A stretch of 32,000 nucleotides of DNA from Nitrosospira multiformis ATCC 25196. Lineage in GTDB: Bacteria; Pseudomonadota; Gammaproteobacteria; Burkholderiales; Nitrosomonadaceae. This document shows, one piece after another, positions 21,998-31,497 of the stretch. Numbering within the stretch: position 1 is the stretch's first letter; each line of letters opens with the position of its first letter. Below the pieces are notes generated by a model. The model had not been told where the DNA came from and did not search any database. It was given only the letters and a program-made list of their open reading frames with translations. Both the position numbers and the translations under genes were made by a program. The stretch spans positions 930,001-962,000 of the forward strand of contig NC_007614.1 in the NCBI RefSeq assembly GCF_000196355.1, written 5' to 3'.

Positions 21998-22840
21998 GGT
22001 TCAGGACCTATTAATTTCATGATTCACGAATAGGATCAAATGTGATTCACTTATGGCGGAGGTGCTGCCATGAGAGATTTGTTTTACCTGTCGGAAACAC
22101 AGTTCAACCGTATAAAACCTTATTTTCCCTTGTCCCACGGAGTTCCCCGTGTTGATGATCTGCGGGTGATCAGCGGGATCATCTACGTCATTCGGAATGG
22201 CCTGCAATGGAAGGATGCCCCCAGGGAATACGGGCCGCACAAGACACTGTATAACCGTTTCGTGCGCTGGAGCCGACTGGGCGTGTTCAACCGCATCTTT
22301 GTGGAACTGACCGGTAAAGAGGAAACGCCCGAGAGGCTGATGATCGACGCCACGCATCTGAAGGCCCACCGCACGGCAGCCAGCCTGCTAAAAAAGGGGA
22401 TGTTCCCCGCCGTATCGGTCGCACAAAGGGCGGCCTGAACTCGAAGCTTCATGTGGTCTGCGACGGTCAGGGCAAGCCTGTGGCCATGCTCCTGTCCGAA
22501 GGGCAGATGAGCGATTACAAGGGAGCACGTGTGCTGCTGCCGTCATTGCCCAAAGCCAAAACCCTGATTGCAGACCGCGGCTATGACGCTGCCTGGTTCC
22601 GGGCAGCGTTGCGTGCCAAAGGCATGACGCCCTGCATACCGACAAAAAGGAATCGCAAAATCCAGATCAAATACGACAAGACCCTCTACAGGCAAAGGCA
22701 CAGGATCGAGAACATGTTCGCTCGGCTCAAGGACTGGCGCAGGATCGCCATGCGTTACGACCGCTGTGCCCATACCTTCTTCTCTGCCATCTGTATCGCC
22801 GCAACTGTCATCTTCTATCTCAATTAATGAGTCCTGAGCC
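21998..22840 (+). mobile_element. second IS5-family insertion sequence, complete, 843 bp
   Basis: The IRs are GGTTCAGGACCTATTAATT (21998-) and AATTAATGAGTCCTGAGCC (-22840). TA flanks lie at 21996-21997 and 22841-22842. The left TA is shared with the neighbouring deletion derivative. Confidence 0.9.
22070..22827 (+). CDS. IS5-family DDE transposase (orfAB, programmed -1 frameshift)
   Basis: orfA reads MRDLFYLSETQFNRIKPYFP..ISGIIYVIRNGLQWKDAP. The slippery heptamer A AAA AAG lies at 22390-22396. The -1 frame continues ..GGLNSKLHVVCDGQGKP..ADRGYDA..YRQRHRIENMFARLKDWRRIAMRYDR. Confidence 0.85.
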
Positions 22841-24300: not shown

Positions 24301-24773
24301 CTAGCCCATGTCACCCGTTTTCTTTCGCCGTTGAGTATTCTCAAATGCCTCTGGGTGACTGCGTTCGCATTCATGGCACTGGGGTCGCACGCATGCTGGA
24401 TCAATAGAGTCTAAGCACTTGAGATCATCCTGGTAAGTCCATCTACCGGCCAGGCACGCAATTGCCTGAATCCCGTTCTTCTTGATCACGGTCAGTAGTC
24501 GCAATGCCGGGCCACCCGGCTTTTTGACACCTCGCTCCCAGTTTGAGACCAGGTTCTTGCTGACATTCAGGTAACGAAGACAGGCTGTGACAGGTGTTCG
24601 CGCTCTCGTAGCTCACGGATTTCCTCGGGTGACATGACTAGCACGGGAGCAAGGCACGACTCGTCGAACTCGCGCATGGTCTGTTTGTCGACCGCCCCAA
24701 TCTCATGCAGCACTTCCATTGTCTCGTGGATTGACGCGAGCGCATTACTCCGATACTTCTTCACCATTTTCAT
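24301..24773 (-). pseudogene. HTH (XRE/HigA-like) antitoxin gene with a frameshift
   Basis: Frame 1 reads MKMVKKYRSNALASIHETMEVLHEIGAVDKQTMREFDESCL..SPEEIRELREREHLSQPVF and stops at 24567. The HTH continuation YLNVSKNLVSQWERGVKKPGGPALRLLTVIKKNGIQAIA lies in another frame. Recognisable similarity ends near 24440 and the rest is a run-on tail. Confidence 0.7.
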
Positions 24774-25115
24774 GCATCTCCGAAAGCTGGTTCTTGCCGA
24801 TCAACTCAGTCAGCTGTTCGTCCGTCAGTCCAAGCACATGGGCCGCTGCCTTCTTGAACTGCGCTTCCTCGTCATCATCGATGTTGTCGCGCTCGCCTTG
24901 ACAAAGCCGTACAAGAAGAAGACACGTCCTGCTATGTGATACAGAACGATGGTGCGAAAACCTCCAGACATGCCCGGGCCTTTCCGCGCCACTCGCTGCA
25001 AGGCCAGAGGTTCGACGGCGGTTGGTTATTTCCCGGACTGAACCCCATTGATCACCTGAGCACCCGTCAGCTCAACCGCCACTCATTTGGCAGCCGCAAC
25101 AAATGGAGTCTTCAC
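24745..25115 (-). pseudogene. RelE/HigB-like toxin gene with two in-frame stops and one frameshift
   Basis: GTG at 25113-25115 overlaps the upstream stop (GTGA). The reading is MKTPFVAAAK*VAVELTGAQVINGVQSGK*PTAVEPLALQRVARKGPGMSGGFRTIVLYHIAGRVFFLYGFVK, then a frameshift, then ERDNIDDDEEAQFKKAAAHVLGLTDEQL..*. The stops are at 25083-25085 (TGA) and 25026-25028 (TAA). The 3' end overlaps the antitoxin start by 29 nt (24745-24773). Confidence 0.65.
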
Positions 25116-25594
25116 GGACACTCAGCGTCGCGGGGCACCCACAGGATGCATCTCCCGAATTCGTTCCGTTCGCAACAGCGTCGGGGAACTCCGCCACCAC
25201 CGCCGCTGCCACCGCCACCACCGCCACCACCGCCACCACCGCCACCACCGCCGCTGCCACCGCCACCACCGCCACCGCTTTCAAATGCGTCAACCAGATC
25301 CCTCATCCATTTAGGAATACAATCGCGGCAGAACCCAAACCCGACAATCGCCAGCGCCCCTGCCCAGCATGCATAACATGCTGCCGGACCTCCCCCGAGG
25401 CAGGCCGCGGTACATAAAGTCACGCCGCCTCCTATTGCAACACCACATGTGATTCCCTTAATCCATCCGCACGCTTGTGGAGCCAGGGTTACATGTCCAT
25501 CACTTGAGAAATTGCCGCCGGCAGTCAAGTAATGGTTGTTTGTACGATAGAGTGATGAGTCTGCAGTAAATCCAGGCATATTCATCGTATTCAC
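25112..25594 (-). CDS. 160-aa Cys/Gly-rich protein, candidate precursor or substrate of the S8 cassette
   Basis: GTG start 6 nt after a perfect AAGGAGG that abuts the upstream stop codon. There is no Cys in residues 1-41 and 12 Cys afterwards. It has a hydrophobic GxxxG-type core, a 29-residue Gly tract, and a C-terminal tail VPRRCCERNEFGRCILWVPRDAECP. Confidence 0.75.
   Translation of the reverse strand: MNTMNMPGFTADSSLYRTNNHYLTAGGNFSSDGHVTLAPQACGWIKGITCGVAIGGGVTLCTAACLGGGPAACYACWAGALAIVGFGFCRDCIPKWMRDLVDAFESGGGGGGGSGGGGGGGGGGGGGGGSGGGGGVPRRCCERNEFGRCILWVPRDAECP
25190..25276. repeat. GC-rich coding tandem repeat (GGY codons; 9-bp GCCACCACC units nested in a 48-bp period)
   Basis: Read directly. 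It encodes G7-S-G15-S-G5 on the minus strand. The two Ser codons (GCT on the plus strand) are exactly 48 nt apart. The other five frames give poly-Pro, His/Arg and Thr/Ala artefact ORFs. Confidence 0.9.
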
Positions 25595-25606
25595 TTCACA
25601 CCTCCT

Positions 25607-26614
25607 TTATCGGTTGAATTGATGTTCATAGTACGGAGAGATCTTGGTGACGAGGAAAGGGAACTCCTCGGTCACATCCACGCGCACGAAGTACTTTTCT
25701 GTAAAATCTGTATTGCGGTTGGTGTAGGAGAAAATAACCTCGACGATGTTGCGCCCGCTGCTTAAAGCCGAGGGACGCACCTCCACCCCTGTCAGGGAAT
25801 GATCTTCCGCGAACTCTTCCGCCGCCTTGGCATAAATGGCGGGATAGCGCATGGCAAGGTAGTTCAACGCCCGATGTTCATCCGTGGCGCCTGCGTTATC
25901 GGTCATGTGCATGATGCGATCGAACAGTTCTTCGGCAGCAGGGCCAAATCGCTCTTCGGCCATCTTCTTGGGCCTCGGGATTGCCTTGATCAATTCATTA
26001 CGGCCAAAAGAATAGATCTGGTCGAATACCACAATCGGCACCATCAGCCCGTTGCACATCTGGGGTGGCGCAATGGGGCCACGCATTCCGATGACCACGT
26101 CGATATCCTGGGGAGCAGGTGCAGGCCGGATGGCATCGATCAACATATCGACGTCAGCAGGATCGCGTGGAACCAGAAGGTAGGTTTCCAGTCCCTGTAC
26201 CGTCAGCACCCAGCACAGCTGCCGTACCAGATACCGGTTCTGTCGCTGGGACAGGACTTCATGGAAGGCCTGCTGGTCGGTTTTGCCAGCGGTTTCCGCC
26301 CGACCGGTTGCCTGGACAAATTCCTTTTCTGCGGAAAGATTGGGGAAACGCGCTTCCACCCGCCCGATGGCGTAGACAAACGCGTTCGTGCCGTCATTCG
26401 AACCCGTGCTTACGCTGTCGGTATTTTGCATCATCTGCCCTGCGCCACAACCGCAGCTTCCTCTGCCCATCTGGGGAGAGATCGGAGCGTTGCCACGAGT
26501 TTGGGGATAGGAAGCGTGATGGGAAGTGGGAGGAACATCATTTCTTTCACCCCGCCTTTGCTGGTCTGGTGTGTTTTCCATCGATTGTTCCAAAATTTCC
26601 CTTTGTTCACTCAT
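25607..26614 (-). CDS. 335-aa protein resembling the non-catalytic accessory domain found in PatA/PatG-type subtilases
   Basis: ATG lies 6 nt after AGGAGG. After a low-complexity N-terminus (..GRGSCGCGAG..) the pattern is FVYAIGRVEARFP..EKEF...LCWVLTVQGLETYLLVP...DVVIGMRGPI...GLMVPIVVFDQIYSF. This matches my memory of the 'VYALG..DFG.EARRD / W.L..d.tP.Y.i.P / V.G....L..G..VPv' domain next to PatA/PatG proteases. Not verified by search. Confidence 0.75.
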   Translation of the reverse strand: MSEQREILEQSMENTPDQQRRGERNDVPPTSHHASYPQTRGNAPISPQMGRGSCGCGAGQMMQNTDSVSTGSNDGTNAFVYAIGRVEARFPNLSAEKEFVQATGRAETAGKTDQQAFHEVLSQRQNRYLVRQLCWVLTVQGLETYLLVPRDPADVDMLIDAIRPAPAPQDIDVVIGMRGPIAPPQMCNGLMVPIVVFDQIYSFGRNELIKAIPRPKKMAEERFGPAAEELFDRIMHMTDNAGATDEHRALNYLAMRYPAIYAKAAEEFAEDHSLTGVEVRPSALSSGRNIVEVIFSYTNRNTDFTEKYFVRVDVTEEFPFLVTKISPYYEHQFNR

Positions 26615-26706
26615 ATTGCTCCTCCTGATAATGGCAGTAGTAGTGCTATCGGTTCTAAAAAAGGAAACTCCTAGACTCCTGATCCAATGATTCTCTTTCT
26701 TCGCTC

Positions 26707-26925
26707 TTACTTCTGTCGGCGCGGTGTGAAAGCGAGCCAGCGATTGAGTGCAACCCCACGGCGTTCACACCCTCCACAAGGTTTTATCCTAAAATAGGAG
26801 GAGGTGCGTTTGATGGCATCCCCCAGCCGGATTTCCTCATCGGTAATGAAGCCGGGCAGGCGGACGTGGTAGGTTGCCTGTTTGCTCTTGTTGTCTGGGA
26901 CGCTCTTGCCCTCATCCTTGATCAT
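26707..26925 (-). CDS. 72-aa mini-protein with LGD-x-IKR-x9-PCGGC-x2-R-x4-NRW motif
   Basis: I trimmed the track ORF to ATG 26923-26925, which overlaps the S8 stop (ATGA). The product is MIKDEGKSVPDNKSKQATYHVRLPGFITDEEIRLGDAIKRTSSYFRIKPCGGCERRGVALNRWLAFTPRRQK. The longer N-terminal extension would lie inside the S8 gene in another frame. Confidence 0.65.
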   Translation of the reverse strand: MIKDEGKSVPDNKSKQATYHVRLPGFITDEEIRLGDAIKRTSSYFRIKPCGGCERRGVALNRWLAFTPRRQK

Positions 26926-27863
26926 GCTGTTTGCCTCCTTGTACTCATTGCAGAAAGCATTTGATAGGCTGCTTCTGCATCGAGCAGGGGCGGCACTATC
27001 GAAGCGCGTCGTGGTCCGTAGCTTCGGGTAGACAGGAAGCCGCCTTGCATGAAGCTGCCTTGGCGGAAGGTTTGGGGTTGGCGCATGATGGCGAGTTTGA
27101 TCTGTGCAACCGTTGCATCGGGAAATTCCGACCACAACAGCGCGATGGCGCCGGTAACAAAAGGCACGGCCATACTTGTGCCGCTTAAGGTAATGGCCTG
27201 GCCGCCAGAGTCCAGACTGGTGATGTTCTCGCCCGGGGCGCTCAAACCCCGCATGCCGATACTGCCGCCAAGGTTCGATTCATTGATCGGACGGCCACGC
27301 AGATCGCAGGCCACCACAGGAATGACCCAAGGGTGGCGGGTGATGACGGAACCGCCCAAAGTGCCTTGATTGCCGGCTGCCGCAACGATCAATACGCCCT
27401 GCTTTAGCGCCTGAGTGAAGGCTTCATCCAATACCTTCTCTCCCCTGGTGGAAGGTCGCGCCAGGGCAAGGCTTAAGTTGATGACGCGCGCACCCGCGTT
27501 GATACAGTCAAAAATTGCCGTTGCCAGCTCCTGAGGCGTTGCGCTGGGCATGTGCTCACGGCCGAAAGTGGCCTCAGAAAAAATGGGGCGAATGAGCAAG
27601 GTGCAGTTGGGACAGATGGCAGGTGCGGAGGAAGTGCGTCTGGCAGCCAGAATACCGGCGACAAAGGTGCCATGCAGGCACGCTCCGCTATCTGTCTGAG
27701 TGCAACTCGCCGCGTTGCGTCCACCAATCTCCATAAGTTGTCCCTGAACGAGGTCGGCGTGTTGGGTGAAGACAGGGCCGTCGATGAGTCCAATCCTGAC
27801 TTCCGGACTGCCGCTGGTGCGTTGCATCAACGCCGGGAGTTTCACGAGTTCGGTGGGGAGCAA
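26922..27863 (-). CDS. S8 (subtilisin-like) serine peptidase, PatA/PatG-like, no signal peptide or prodomain
   Basis: TTG start 7 nt after AGGAGA. The catalytic residues are readable: D28 (IGLIDGPV), H64 (CLHGTFVAGIL), N165 (AAAGNQG), S230 (LSGTSMAVPFVTG). The C-terminal SIVPPLLDAEAAY tail resembles that subfamily, from memory. Confidence 0.9.
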   Translation of the reverse strand: MLPTELVKLPALMQRTSGSPEVRIGLIDGPVFTQHADLVQGQLMEIGGRNAASCTQTDSGACLHGTFVAGILAARRTSSAPAICPNCTLLIRPIFSEATFGREHMPSATPQELATAIFDCINAGARVINLSLALARPSTRGEKVLDEAFTQALKQGVLIVAAAGNQGTLGGSVITRHPWVIPVVACDLRGRPINESNLGGSIGMRGLSAPGENITSLDSGGQAITLSGTSMAVPFVTGAIALLWSEFPDATVAQIKLAIMRQPQTFRQGSFMQGGFLSTRSYGPRRASIVPPLLDAEAAYQMLSAMSTRRQTA

Positions 27864-27940
27864 AAGCGTTCTCCTGAATCAAAGTTATAACCCTTCGACG
27901 AAGGTTAATTGCTTCAATTTAGGTGATGGAATTCAAGCTG

Positions 27941-28320
27941 TCAAAGCAGATTGGGAACTTCACGGGCCGGAACCAGGAGTCGCATACCCGGGGCTATGCC
28001 ATCGATCATCCTGCGATCACCGCTGCCGTCGATGGTTCTGATGGCCATGCTGGTTGCCAGCATCGCAGTGGGACGCGATATCTCCTTCTCCCAGTCTTCA
28101 CCTGGGGGCTCACGTTTCGAACCCGGGCAATGCGGGCGTTTGACGAAGGGGTCAAAGACCGGTCACAGGAGACAGTTTTCAAGGCAGGAGCGTCCGGATC
28201 ACAAATATTGAACTCACTGCCACCAGAAGAACCTTGCGTGCAAGGAGGTACGGCTACAGTAACGATCTCCGCTCCAATAATGCAGATATCATAGTTGCCA
28301 ATCAACGCTATACCTTTCAT
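27941..28320 (-). pseudogene. uncharacterised ORF immediately upstream of the S8 gene, probably frameshifted
   Basis: ATG 28318-28320 overlaps the upstream stop (ATGA). MKGIALIGNYDICIIGAEIVTVAVPPCTQGSSGGSEFNICDPDAPALKTVSCD is protein-like. The same frame then turns Arg-rich, while another frame gives protein-like ..DPFVKRPHCPGSKREPPGEDWEKEISRPTAMLATSMAIRTIDGSGDRRMIDGIAPGMRLLVPAREVPNLL* ending at 27941. Confidence 0.3.
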
Positions 28321-28709
28321 TTGTTCCTGGCCGAGTTCATGCAAATCTGGACGCCAGTTACGAAAGCGCCACTCGGGAGCAAGGGGGTGAGCTGATCTCC
28401 GATTTTATGCCCCGCGCATTCCGAAAACTTTAATGATGGTTGTGCTTCCCAGGTTGCCACATCCCGATATTTGATTTCCATATAACATGGATCGTCAGAA
28501 TCCTCACCGATAGTCACGCCGTAGATCGACCCATTCGGGGAAGCTGCCTTAGCCAAAGTCCTGTTTGTCGGCGTCTTGCCGGATGTCGAGGCGGAACTGG
28601 ATGATTTAACAAATGCTGAACAGCTGCGCCGGGTGCCGAACTCGTGGGGGAACCTGGTTTGCCTGGCCGTTTCTTGGGCAGTCCGGATCTTGTGGACACG
28701 CTGCTGCAT
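28317..28709 (-). CDS. uncharacterised ORF (130 aa in track), N-terminus uncertain
   Basis: The C-terminal two-thirds look protein-like (SPNGSIYGVTIGEDSDDPCYMEIKYRDVATWEAQPSLKFSECAGHKIGDQLTPLLPSGAFVTGVQICMN). A hydrophobic N-terminal peptide (MIIWIGILLLASSAGS, ATG 28843) lies upstream in a different frame, so the gene may be disrupted. Confidence 0.3.
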   Translation of the reverse strand: MQQRVHKIRTAQETARQTRFPHEFGTRRSCSAFVKSSSSASTSGKTPTNRTLAKAASPNGSIYGVTIGEDSDDPCYMEIKYRDVATWEAQPSLKFSECAGHKIGDQLTPLLPSGAFVTGVQICMNSARNK

Positions 28710-29353: not shown

Positions 29354-30139
29354 ATGAAGAAATTAACTCATGCTTTTCTATTGGGAGCAGTACTGCTGGG
29401 CTCCATCGCCGTTATTGCCCAGCAACGTGAAGCTGGTGGAACCACCGGTGATCCGGCAAACCGTGCTGTAAACATTAACCTCGGCAGTACCGGAGGTGCG
29501 CTGGATAATTCCGCCCTGATGACAATTCGCCGGCAGGTCGGCAAGGCCATCTCCTCGGAGGCTGTCGATACTTTTATTGTCTACAGTCCAAAAATCGGTG
29601 GTTCCGTGCAAGTTGAAGGCGGTCTCAACGCCTGCGCGGAAGAAGGGTTCAGCGCGAAACCTAACCAGTTCAGGGAGTTTGTACACAAGTTGCGCGAGAT
29701 TCGTCCACGAACAGGTACCTTCCTGAATATCGAGCTCACAGGCCAGTGTAAACCTGTTGGTTCCGGGGCAGGGGAGGAGAACGTTTGCGGCGGCATTGCT
29801 GGGAAACGTTGTCCCGATGAAAAACAGTACTGTGATTTTGGTGTCGGTCAATGCAAGATCGCGGACGCGCAAGGCACCTGCAAGACAAAACCAAGAAATT
29901 GCACGCGCGAATTCCGGCCCGTTTGCGGCTGCGACGGAAAAACGTACGGGAACGCATGTACAGCGGCAGCTGCAGGAGTATCAATCGTCCATCAGGGTGA
30001 ATGCAAGACTGAGCAGCAAGCGTGTGGGGGAATCGCAGCGATTCCATGCCCCAAAGGCAAAACCTGTGTGGACGATCCTTCCGATGATTGCGACCCCAAA
30101 CAGGGCGGGGCTGACTGTAGCGGCATTTGCGTGAAGTAA
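29354..30139 (+). CDS. secreted Cys-rich protein with a Kazal-type serine-protease-inhibitor domain
   Basis: Signal peptide MKKLTHAFLLGAVLLGSIAVIA-QQ. A Kazal signature lies at residues ~176-217: C-x6-C-TREFR-PVCGCDGKTYGNAC-x15-C. It is flanked by two CGGIA-x3-5-CP..C..C..G.C modules. Confidence 0.85.
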   Translation: MKKLTHAFLLGAVLLGSIAVIAQQREAGGTTGDPANRAVNINLGSTGGALDNSALMTIRRQVGKAISSEAVDTFIVYSPKIGGSVQVEGGLNACAEEGFSAKPNQFREFVHKLREIRPRTGTFLNIELTGQCKPVGSGAGEENVCGGIAGKRCPDEKQYCDFGVGQCKIADAQGTCKTKPRNCTREFRPVCGCDGKTYGNACTAAAAGVSIVHQGECKTEQQACGGIAAIPCPKGKTCVDDPSDDCDPKQGGADCSGICVK

Positions 30140-30157: not shown

Positions 30158-30733
30158 GTGACTTGCTATTGTTTGGCCGCTGTAAGTGTATCCTTCGCCG
30201 CGCTCGGGATTACGCCATGCTCGCAGGCTTCCGAACCCGTTTCAGCGGAACGTATCGATGCAGCGAGCATGCGGCGCATAGGCACAGTCGATGAGCGGTT
30301 CCAATCTTACAACATCGAAATGATCGAAGTCATCGGTGGAAGATTCTGGAAGCCATACAGGGATATCGACCCTCTTCTCAAGGGGGGTCCTCCGGCGCAC
30401 AATCGAAAAAGAATTCGACAACCCGTGGGTATGAACCCGAATCTGTACCAACAGCGTCCGCCGATTGACCTTGCCAACCTGCGCTTGCACAAGCTCGCAG
30501 CCGCCTTGGGACCTGCTTATGTAAGAGTCACCGGAATGTGGGTCAACAGCGCCTACTTCCACAATTCCGATCAGCTCGCACCGAAGAGGCCTCCAAAAGG
30601 CTTCAGCGGAGTATTAACCCGTCGGCAATGGAAGATCGCGCAGCGGAGACAAGGAGTGGGGGCAACTCGCCTATCACTATCAGAGAGGTCAACCAGACGG
30701 TTGGTCCATGATGCAGACGGGAGACATTCGTGA
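30158..30733 (+). pseudogene. N-terminal fragment of a GH79-like (heparanase/beta-glucuronidase-like) glycoside hydrolase
   Basis: About 155 residues (..VDERFQSYNIEMIEVIGGRFWKPY...LANLRLHKLAAALGPAYVRVTGMWVNSAYF...GFSGVLTRRQW) match my memory of the N-terminus of this ~500-aa family. Similarity then stops in all three frames. The family call is unverified. Confidence 0.4.
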
Positions 30734-31497
30734 GTAATTTTATTGTTGTTGTCTTCCCGACGGAAAAACAGGCAGACGAGGGCAGGAAAGCGCTCAAGGA
30801 ACTTCAGGAGGAAGGCAAGCTTACGATTCATGGGATGGCCATCATCACCAAGCAAACAGATGGCAAGGTCTCGATGAAGGACCAGGCTGACAAAGCGCCC
30901 TTTGGGACGGCGGTAGGGACAGTCGTGGGTAGCCTTATTGGTTTGTTGGGAGGACCAGTGGGGCTTGCCGCAGGCGCAGCTGCAGGTGCTTTTTTAGGAT
31001 ACTCGGTCGATGCTTCCAATTACGGCTTGGGCACGGAGTTCGTTGATGAGGTATCACGGAATTTAACGACCGGAAAGAGCGCGCTGGTCGCCGAGGTTGA
31101 CGAGTATTGGACCGTACCGCTAGATTTGACGATGGAAGCGCTAGGCGGAATCATAGTTCGCCAATGGCGCCTGGATGTGGAACAAGACCTGATTCGGAAT
31201 GATGTCCGCGCTCGCAATGCCGAGCTTTCCCAACTCAAGGCTGAGTATGGGCAAGCCGAGGATGAGCATAAGGCGCGGTTGGAAGTCAGGATCAAGATTG
31301 TCGAGGCCAAACTGAAGGCCGCCTTGGAACGTGAAAAGGCCAAGGTGGAAGCGTTAAAACAGCAAGCAGACGCGAAGATCAAGGCCCTCCAGAAACAGGC
31401 TACAACGGCAAGCCCGGAAACCAGAAACATAATCGAGCAACGGGTCGCAGAAATTCAAGCGGAATCAGAGAAGCTTGCAAAACAGCATGGGACTTAA
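30730..31497 (+). CDS. DUF1269-like membrane protein with C-terminal coiled-coil
   Basis: The GTG start overlaps the preceding stop. The N-terminus IVVVFPTEKQADEGRKALKELQEEGKLTIHGMAIITKQTDGKV, a Gly-zipper TM segment (GTVVGSLIGLLGGPVGLAAGAAAGAFLG) and a second alpha/beta half fit the DUF1269 layout. About 90 residues of Lys/Glu/Ala coiled-coil follow. Confidence 0.7.
   Translation: MSNFIVVVFPTEKQADEGRKALKELQEEGKLTIHGMAIITKQTDGKVSMKDQADKAPFGTAVGTVVGSLIGLLGGPVGLAAGAAAGAFLGYSVDASNYGLGTEFVDEVSRNLTTGKSALVAEVDEYWTVPLDLTMEALGGIIVRQWRLDVEQDLIRNDVRARNAELSQLKAEYGQAEDEHKARLEVRIKIVEAKLKAALEREKAKVEALKQQADAKIKALQKQATTASPETRNIIEQRVAEIQAESEKLAKQHGT

Follow-up and report, generated by a model that had tools for sequence, protein, structure and literature searches.

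Comparative genomics of an apparently undescribed, mobile cassette in Nitrosospira multiformis that combines a split PatA-type protease module with leader-bearing precursors

Cyanobactin gene clusters, which up to 2015 were described only from cyanobacteria (PMC4663559), are one of the closest points of comparison for the locus that is presented here. Their proteins PatA and PatG share a domain of undefined function (DUF) that is conserved in the patellamide-like pathways characterised so far and for which no role was found (PMC4259220). Elsewhere, the PatG-type DUF accompanies the macrocyclase and oxidase of PatG or the kinase insert of DolG (PMC12639078). A second point of comparison is provided by the S8 proteases that act on the leaders of class I lanthipeptides: ElxP is a cytoplasmic S8 leader peptidase that needs Leu or Val at P4 and Gln at P1 (PMC10885120), while the cut by NisP follows ASPR and Q occupies P1 in other class I leaders (PMC5812297). 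We analysed a window of 32,000 nucleotides (nt) from Nitrosospira multiformis ATCC 25196 (contig NC_007614.1, positions 930,001 to 962,000), in which a cassette of four minus-strand genes spans 25112-27863. The cassette encodes an S8 protease of 313 amino acids (aa), a mini-protein of 72 aa with a CGGC motif, a PatG-type DUF protein of 335 aa, which shows 100% identity to an N. multiformis protein, and a Cys-rich protein of 160 aa. Based on the comparison of this cassette with related loci, we propose that the operon is probably a self-contained, mobile maturation system for leader-bearing, Cys-rich proteins that is built on a split PatA module.

An earlier note on this DNA, which was made from the sequence alone, had described four intact and physically coupled genes, and a reading of the sequence together with the list of open reading frames (ORFs) confirmed the ORFs, the ATGA coupling and both AGGAGG sites at 6-nt spacing. 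The TGA stop of the S8 gene (26924-26922) overlaps with the ATG start of the 72-aa gene (26925-26923), which has AAGGAGG 8 nt upstream of it. The 335-aa gene is preceded by AGGAGG at 26626-26621, 6 nt ahead of its ATG, and its TAA stop (25609-25607) abuts a further AGGAGG (25606-25601), after which come 6 nt and the GTG start of the 160-aa gene at 25594. The S8 gene begins with TTG and has AGGAG 7 nt ahead of this start. In none of the four proteins did the sequence reading show a hydrophobic, signal-like N-terminus. The S8 protease (26922..27863, minus strand) belongs to family S8, as its match to Pfam Peptidase_S8 (PF00082) has an E-value of 1.2e-25 and reaches 90.9 bits against a cutoff of 21.8. 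It had been read as a PatA/PatG-like enzyme with a complete D28/H64/N165/S230 set and without a signal peptide or prodomain, and this reading stood: the four residues were unchanged in 40/40 homologous S8 proteins from the related loci, neither a signal peptide nor a prodomain was found in the sequence reading, and a PDB search ranked PatA/PagA first among the solved structures (4H6V, 3ZXX and 4H6W; E 1e-30 to 3e-28), followed by subtilisins (1e-18) and the PatG macrocyclase domain (6e-17). The protein and PatA are colinear from residue 17, while the alignment to the PatG macrocyclase domain begins only at residue 64; to judge from these alignments, the protein is PatA-like and without the macrocyclase insert. 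Against the NCBIfam model for PatA/PatG (TIGR03895), the S8 protease scored 118 bits and the 335-aa protein 26 bits at a cutoff of 421, i.e., neither is a full-length member, because each of them matches no more than its own portion of the model.

The 335-aa protein (25607..26614, minus strand) is a separate polypeptide that consists of PatG_D (E 4.7e-39; 133.8 bits against a gathering score of 27) and PatG_C (E 2.3e-36; 124.7 bits against 25.9), and its sequence profile matched the structure of the PatG DUF, 4UVQ, at 6e-5. An AlphaFold2 model that was built on a diverse alignment had a predicted local distance difference test (pLDDT) value of 86 overall and of about 97 across residues 79-330, which form the folded body, with residues 1-78 disordered; a shallow alignment of close homologs gave a pLDDT of 40 and was discarded. 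In a Foldseek search, 4UVQ was the sole significant match of the model (E 5.8e-14, template modelling (TM) score 0.77). Likenesses to MHC platforms and VirB8/NTF2-like proteins (probability <0.6, TM <0.36) were not used. Judged by its domains and its predicted fold, the 335-aa protein is a true PatG-type DUF, and the suggested resemblance to the domain that accompanies the PatA/PatG proteases was thus borne out by Pfam, the PDB sequence search and the model alike. That it is a separate polypeptide here was also correct, as some relatives of 580-643 aa are S8-linker-DUF fusions with the architecture of PatA. The DUF is the most conserved component of the cassette, with identities of 59-91% across phyla; the search for relatives gave 8000 scored matches, the top 120 of which are all at least 68% identical, and the family comprises 1563 clusters at the 50% level. 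The disordered tail contains I-S-P-Q at 45-48 and C54-G-C56. Close relatives keep I-S/T-P-Q in the tail with an invariant Q48, and a CxC or CxxC pair occurs in the tail of 33 of the 43 diverse relatives. The tail may be processed by the same protease or may be a pseudo-substrate.

Between these two genes lies the gene of the 72-aa CGGC accessory protein (26707..26925, minus strand), which is translationally coupled to the S8 gene through the ATGA overlap. Its core, VRLPGF…GD..K…PCGGCxxR…L..W, is invariant, and its 370 homologs of 68-96 aa are all unnamed. The mini-protein had no Pfam, NCBIfam or PADLOC match and no convincing match in PHROGs, where the cassette gave generic S8 matches and one weak match of the mini-protein to a phage family of undefined function. 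Its assignment as a PatB or PatC homolog was rejected, as there was no NCBIfam match at E up to 1. We also rejected its RLPGFITD segment as a homolog of the leader box that is described below (NMPGFTAD), since only 8 residues were aligned (hhalign P 0.009, probability 4.5%). We can only speculate that the mini-protein competes with the leaders or bridges the S8 protease and the DUF in their split form.

The earlier note had suggested the co-occurrence of the four genes in other genomes as a check, and the order of S8 gene, mini gene, DUF gene and precursors was found to recur in about 130 loci from at least six phyla and from plasmids. The loci were taken from 46 loci with one genome per species, 80 metagenome loci and plasmids, which together make up about 130 sources and 1.2 Mb. 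In a set of 50 of these sources, the S8 gene was present in 44 and the mini gene in 40, always in the order S8-mini-DUF, and the gaps were mostly contig ends. The hosts include Proteobacteria, Acidobacteria, Cyanobacteria, Chloroflexi, Nitrospirota and Streptomyces. The loci with one genome per species came from Nitrosospira, Nitrosovibrio, Nitrosomonas, Methylococcaceae, Acidobacteriaceae and Bryobacterales, and others of these loci belonged to Vicinamibacterales, Calothrix, Caldilineales, Ignavibacteria and Nitrospirota. Among the cyanobacteria, only Calothrix has the full cassette, and one Nostoc contig holds a short DUF fragment. A scan of metagenomes with the alignment of close DUF homologs added at least 480 further loci. 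The cassette is borne on plasmids in Mesorhizobium (77% identity), Sinorhizobium and Streptomyces, and on the plasmid of Streptomyces sp. NBC_01568 (locus L133, 1951-8923), it is flanked by a Tn3-type resolvase and a Tn3 transposase. Precursor ORFs that lie right after the DUF gene on this plasmid (from 5263) and on the Mesorhizobium plasmid pB2-1-1 (locus L132, from 5838) are absent from the gene tables as listed, which are incomplete. No phage matches to the cassette were found. The cassette is a conserved and horizontally mobile unit, and its gene arrangement is far beyond chance. Clustering of all of the ORFs of the 50 sources revealed no transporter, modifying enzyme or immunity candidate that was conserved across lineages. 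In the window, we scanned the ten largest ORFs outside the cassette and the smaller ORFs near it; none of these encodes a cyclodehydratase, a lanthionine synthetase, a radical-SAM enzyme, a second protease or an ABC exporter, which agrees with the earlier note, according to which the window has no enzymes or exporters of these kinds.

The fourth gene (25112..25594 including the stop, minus strand) encodes the 160-aa precursor, which is a member of a leader family and the sole match of the leader hidden Markov model in the whole window (E 3e-14). Its GTG start is credible since many relatives start MNTMNMPGF with an ATG at this place. The consensus of first 97 and then 208 family members assigned residues 1-40 (25475..25594, minus strand) to the leader. 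The leader box, M4-N-M-P-G-F-T-A-D-S-S-L-Y…Y22, covers residues 4-22 (25529-25585, minus strand); the recognition box reads MNMPGFTADSSLY…Y, the leader box peptide is MNMPGFTADSSLYRTNNHY, and the putative cleavage motif is L37-A-P-Q40. Residues 41-160 (25115..25474, minus strand) form the core. All of the 12 Cys of the protein lie from residue 42 onwards. Two Gly/Ala/Cys-rich stretches (48-66 and 71-89) are hydrophobic and reach a transmembrane-like hydropathy (1.6 or more when averaged across 19 residues); this hydrophobic hairpin holds 8 Cys, and the C-terminal end of the core is a 4-Cys knob. A 29-residue Gly/Ser tract at residues 107-135 is encoded by a GGT/GGC tandem repeat (25191..25276, minus strand), for which Tandem Repeats Finder reported periods of 9 and 12 and 6-9 copies. 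The orthologs have shorter Gly/Ser tracts, the length of which may vary by slippage. Orthologs of the core were found in N. communis (L023, 67% over 156 aa) and in loci L016, L046, L005 and L064; the core type is shared by other Nitrosospira, several metagenome loci and the Mesorhizobium plasmid. At this position, the N. multiformis strains Nl12, Nl18 and Nl7 (L004, L006 and L007) have two precursors that are quite unlike the one in the window, which means that the cargo varies within a species.

The layout that had led to the 160-aa protein being proposed as a precursor with a Cys-free leader fits a family of 225 unique proteins with a shared leader and hypervariable cores. Across the 130 sources, 236 leader-bearing ORFs were identified, 235 of which lie on the DUF strand. 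Nearly always they come just after the DUF gene, and each locus of sufficient length contains between one and seven of them. The unique precursors, of which 208 are complete, have a median length of 94 aa and a range of 49-513. Their shared leader reads M-N-[MIL]-P-G-F-T-A-E-A-S-L-Y-K-T-x-G-x-Y. Of the first 97 sequences, all have F and A (97/97), 94 have S, 94 have P, 85 have E and 80 have the final Y, and the residue after E is A, S or T in 71. A second motif follows about 30-34 residues after the box proline and consists of a small residue, V/I/L, I/M/V/L and P-Q. A PQ or AQ dipeptide was present at 30-34 residues past the box proline in 51/97 sequences compared to 3/56 control windows. With P4 counted, the strict form phi-x-P-Q was found in 40/95 and the loose form phi-x-[PA]-[QAS] in 75/95, and P4 was V, I or L in 76/76 strict sites. 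A Cys before PQ was seen in only 4/40 sequences, and the first Cys follows PQ at a median of 10 residues. A search with a 44-column profile of the leader alone returned 58 candidates of 44-77 aa, all unnamed, which do not amount to a census of the cargo.

The cores range from 20 to 470 residues and are unrelated to each other; they fell into 72 clusters, 55 of them singletons, and the precursors have no conserved C-terminal motif. An even number of Cys is present in 186/208 precursors, with a mode of six, and by our own estimate about half would be expected by chance. Most of the cores had no domain match in Pfam, and NCBIfam gave no name for eleven precursors. Those with matches include Kazal cores behind a PGFTAE leader in L035 (11010) and L054 (64), Stig1-like repeats in the L032 core (1e-30) and a phospholipase A2 (PLA2)-like core in L134 (3166-3636) that contains YGRWCGPGHGG and CMMHDLCY and whose Pfam match of 6.6e-6 is below the cutoff. 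In the L134 locus, the S8 and DUF genes are fused, and a further cassette there is decayed and consists of a mini gene and a PatG_C fragment. A Kazal domain (2.2e-9) was additionally seen in the window itself, in a 261-aa protein with an ordinary signal peptide (29354-30139, plus strand) that is encoded 1.5 kb upstream of the S8 gene, and in L001 (13838-14287) a homologous Kazal module with an ordinary signal peptide lies beside the cassette. In L085, a leader-bearing ORF from 12335 encodes 337 aa with YWTD-like repeats (LYWTS, LFWVD, IYFSE, VFWGE and IYWGD) and almost no Cys; its product may be a beta-propeller cargo, and it shows that the cargo is not always Cys-rich.

The best evidence for the position of the leader end was provided by variant operons. 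In two relatives of the DUF, the fusion partner is a JmjC_2 hydroxylase domain and not a protease. Their operons (L130, 1513-6199; L131, 959-5500) comprise one or more precursors, the JmjC_2-PatG_D-PatG_C fusion, an S8 gene and a sulfotransferase-like gene and have no mini gene. One L130 precursor has the same leader box and reads MAMPGFTAEHSL…YVSPQ followed directly by FLDFIKEAFE, and the second reads MAIPGFTAEQCLATPGAVSPQ followed by FLDFVKEAFE. In the L131 precursor, MSMPGFTATNSL…MVEPE precedes FLDFIRDA, with PE instead of PQ. The spacers of the two L130 paralogs differ by 17 residues, and the sequences are alignable directly after PQ, which suggests that PQ marks the end of the leader. On the evidence of these sequences, the box, the S8 protease and the DUF travel together while the partner enzyme changes. 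The DUF is fused to whichever enzyme acts on the leader-bearing precursors, the S8 protease or the JmjC hydroxylase, and from this pattern we infer that it may be a substrate-recruiting or scaffolding module.

When compared with the cyanobactin clusters, the cassette has in common with them a PatA-type protease and a PatG_D/PatG_C domain, which are fused in the cassette relatives exactly as in PatA, as well as several precursor genes per locus with a conserved N-terminal part and hypervariable cores. Moreover, the A-E-A-S of the cassette box is similar to the PatA site G(L/V)E(A/P)S (PMC10885120), and a dedicated exporter is present in neither system. However, the cassette has no PatG macrocyclase, PatD heterocyclase, PatB/C/F or C-terminal recognition sequence; its cores of 20-470 residues with paired Cys differ from the 6-8-residue cassettes of cyanobactins; its DUF is separate and is joined by the additional CGGC mini-protein; and the system is present in at least six phyla, with hosts that are mostly not cyanobacteria. 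A single S8 protease was found in the window scan, and the related loci do not share a second one either. A second PatG-type protease, a C-terminal recognition sequence, a heterocyclase, the size class of the cores and cyanobacterial hosts are among the constants that PMC4663559 gives for the cyanobactin family. Likewise, one A-E-A-S that resembles recognition sequence II (RSII) is present at the N-terminus, and there is no AYDG-like RSIII. The leader grammar, as far as it can be read from the precursors, is nearest to that of the class I lanthipeptides that are cut by LanP-type S8 proteases. Both have a conserved box (FNLD there, F-T/N-A-E here), a variable spacer, Pro at P2, Gln or Arg at P1 and a Cys-containing core (PMC5812297), and the requirement of ElxP for Leu/Val at P4 and Gln at P1 (PMC10885120) agrees with the V/I/L-x-P-Q of the present precursors. 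In contrast to the lanthipeptide clusters, no LanB, LanC or LanT was found among the window ORFs that were scanned and none is conserved in the 50 sources, the spacer has roughly double the length, the cores often consist of whole domains, and the S8 protease is nearer to PatA than to the other solved S8 proteases. With the double-glycine bacteriocins, the cassette shares paralogous precursors with a common leader and diverse cores, strain-to-strain differences and mobile loci, but its boundary is phi-x-P-Q without GG, and neither a C39 peptidase nor an ABC transporter is conserved nearby. Animal venom and defence peptides have a conserved pro-region and hypervariable products with 4-8 Cys, and they are cut by S8-family proprotein convertases. 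The Kazal and PLA2-like cargo and the S8-family cutter of the cassette resemble these as an analogy and no more; in the bacterial system, both a signal peptide and a secretory pathway are lacking, the cleavage motif is another one, and toxicity is a prediction.

The locus is not a cyanobactin, lanthipeptide or double-glycine bacteriocin cluster. The earlier claim that the cassette lies outside the known bacteriocin classes and those of the peptides that are made by ribosomes and modified after translation (RiPPs) was upheld, with Pfam and NCBIfam blank for the mini-protein and the precursors of the cassette. The database records of the cassette proteins are labelled hypothetical. In the literature searched, which covered few subscription journals so that an earlier description is possible, we found none of the leader, the gene set or a stand-alone PatG-type DUF; the system is apparently undescribed. 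The term "RiPP/bacteriocin-type" itself calls for qualification: the leader/core design of the precursors is present, but the window shows no modification besides proteolysis and holds no modifying enzyme, as a strict RiPP would have, although a JmjC_2 domain and a sulfotransferase-like gene are found in operons of relatives. A safer name is "leader-dependent effector or bacteriocin system" since many of the cores are whole domains and not peptides.

In the mechanism that we propose, the 160-aa product would be the substrate, with residues 1-40 (the box and LAPQ) as its leader and residues 41-160 as its core. The S8 protease would remove the leader, most likely after V/I/L-x-P-Q. This step is placed in the cytoplasm because the enzyme has no signal peptide or prodomain, and the PQ site is favoured because of the boundary in L130 and L131 and the precedent of S8 leader peptidases. 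The DUF, and the mini-protein where it is present, would assist the protease as non-catalytic partners and probably recruit the leader box or hold it. Once released, the core would form disulfides, as the even number of Cys and the cores of the Kazal, Stig1 and PLA2 types suggest; both point to products for an oxidising compartment. Finally, the core would probably be an antagonistic effector, which in the case of the window may be membrane-active and bacteriocin-like; the variation of the cores within a species, the paralogs per locus and the carriage on plasmids and a transposon fit such a role. We place moderate confidence in this explanation as a whole, including its conditional steps; the homologies, gene order, leader/core design, Cys parity, mobility and, for the scanned ORFs, the lack of other enzymes are direct observations. 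A metallothionein-like function was rejected as the main explanation on account of the even Cys parity and of the Kazal, Stig1 and PLA2-type cores.

Several points weigh against a maturation system of this kind. In the sole experiment on a PatG-type DUF, which used nuclear magnetic resonance (NMR), PatE was not bound irrespective of whether it contained heterocycles (PMC4259220), which argues against the DUF as a leader receptor, at least in the patellamide pathway; cleaved PatE intermediates were not part of that work (PMC4259220). The cores are of an extracellular type, though no export route is apparent, with no signal peptides and no transporter conserved in the 50 sources, and no immunity gene is evident. 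Leader cleavage is predicted from the sequences, and the strict phi-x-P-Q is present in only 76/208 precursors. The likeness of RLPGFITD to NMPGFTAD is short and is a resemblance only, not homology. Furthermore, there is no mini gene in L019, L034 (Calothrix sp. NIES-4105) and L042, in which the gaps between the S8 and DUF genes are 20-70 nt, and the mini-protein is therefore dispensable in some lineages.

The resemblance of A-E-A-S in the box to G(L/V)E(A/P)S (PMC10885120) also counts against cleavage at PQ, since the cut could fall there instead. The protease would then act inside the box after F-T-A-E-A-S, about 14 residues would be lost, and L-Y-K-T..Y…PQ would stay or be trimmed later. 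Such a site is in line with the PatA-like nature of the S8 protease, with PatA-like enzymes cutting after G(L/V)E(A/P)S (PMC10885120, PMC4282754) and with E (85/97), A/S/T (71/97) and S (94/97) as the best-conserved precursor positions. We nevertheless consider it unlikely: the conservation runs eight residues past the Ser (L, Y, T and Y+15), which is unusual for P' positions, the box lies at the very N-terminus with almost nothing upstream for the protease to hold, and the Cys-free zone and the paralog alignments mark PQ as the leader-core boundary. In another reading, the conserved N-terminus would mainly be an export or targeting signal for a non-classical secretion route, and the S8 protease, DUF and mini-protein would be its targeting and signal-peptidase machinery; the cassette would then be a small secretion system for folded proteins of the disulfide type and not a RiPP-like pathway. 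Kazal, Stig1-like and secreted-PLA2-like domains otherwise occur only outside the cytoplasm, the homologous Kazal modules of the window and of L001 use a conventional signal peptide where those of L035 and L054 have the leader, and the cargo reaches 513 aa. The top NCBIfam match of the S8 protease, a type VII secretion mycosin, might seem to point the same way, but with 129 bits against a cutoff of 279 it lies far under the threshold. Moreover, the cassette is not accompanied by a conserved membrane protein, ATPase or channel in the 130 loci, and the sequence reading showed no transmembrane segment or signal peptide in the S8 protease, DUF or mini-protein, which makes secretion machinery quite improbable.

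We regard it as very improbable that the cassette is an intracellular stress or defence module, either with a protease-activated abortive-infection toxin or with metal- or redox-buffering Cys-rich proteins under the control of the protease. The cassette is indeed mobile and patchy, its neighbours in the window include toxin-antitoxin and transposase remnants, HEPN/nucleotidyltransferase genes lie next to it in L134 and on the Mesorhizobium plasmid, and the hydrophobic 160-aa core could damage the membrane of its own producer. The matches of the S8 protease to defence subtilases in PADLOC (subtilase 4e-20, IetS 1.6e-8), however, reflect ordinary, generic S8 similarity, the other three proteins match no defence model, there are no phage matches, and the even Cys parity together with the Kazal, Stig1 and PLA2-type cores indicates disulfides and extracellular action. 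The maturation of leader-bearing precursors by the S8 protease and its partners is the explanation that we prefer.

The surroundings of the cassette were only partly as expected from the earlier note, according to which most of the neighbours are pseudogenes. Downstream of the cassette, a fragment of a RelE toxin (24825-25001) matches profile positions 46-82 of 120, and a truncated DDE transposase fragment follows further downstream (22453-22827). These remnants suggest a decayed mobile region around the cassette. Other neighbours appear to be intact, namely HlyIII, CspA, the Kazal protein, the his operon and several regulators, and the claim does not hold for these. A short ORF at 24567-24773 was read as an antitoxin remnant and had no Pfam match. 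The ten largest ORFs of the window scan comprise his operon genes, DUF6733, a PAS-GGDEF-EAL protein, a Crp-like regulator, a histidine kinase and two ORFs without a Pfam match. A 255-aa protein (30730-31497, plus strand) matched DUF1269 at 3.6e-9, above the gathering score, and a YMGG-like glycine-zipper at 5.6e-6, below it; it has only glycine-zipper-like composition in common with the 160-aa core. About 50 nt upstream of the S8 start lies a sigma-70-like promoter candidate (TTGACA, 17 nt, TAAATT; 27916..27944, minus strand). It is the sole such site in 24700-28400, and as shuffled sequences contain 1.9 on average, this is no more than chance and constitutes weak evidence.

A broader interpretation, which we put forward tentatively and consider possible but doubtful, is that the cassette represents an unrecognised, widespread bacterial "pro-protein convertase" platform, in which a PatA-type S8 protease and a DUF receptor for a 20-residue N-terminal box would mature, and perhaps export, a polymorphic set of disulfide-rich, venom-like effectors such as peptides of knottin size, membrane hairpins, Kazal inhibitors and enzymes that resemble PLA2. 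If this is true, it would give a first function to the cyanobactin DUF, which has been unexplained since 2005-2014, and it would imply an export route without a known transporter. A stand-alone DUF with a short, invariant candidate ligand, the leader box, provides a handle on the function of the cyanobactin DUF, and solving how domains of an extracellular type exit the cell could reveal a new secretion route. The shared leader could also serve as a portable tag for making disulfide-rich peptides. With at least 480 metagenome loci and 225 distinct precursors in the sample, the family is a large, untapped group of Cys-rich ribosomal products, and its hosts include ammonia oxidisers, methanotrophs and Acidobacteria, from which few natural products are known. 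In Nitrosospira and other nitrifiers, the effectors could shape competition in the soil.

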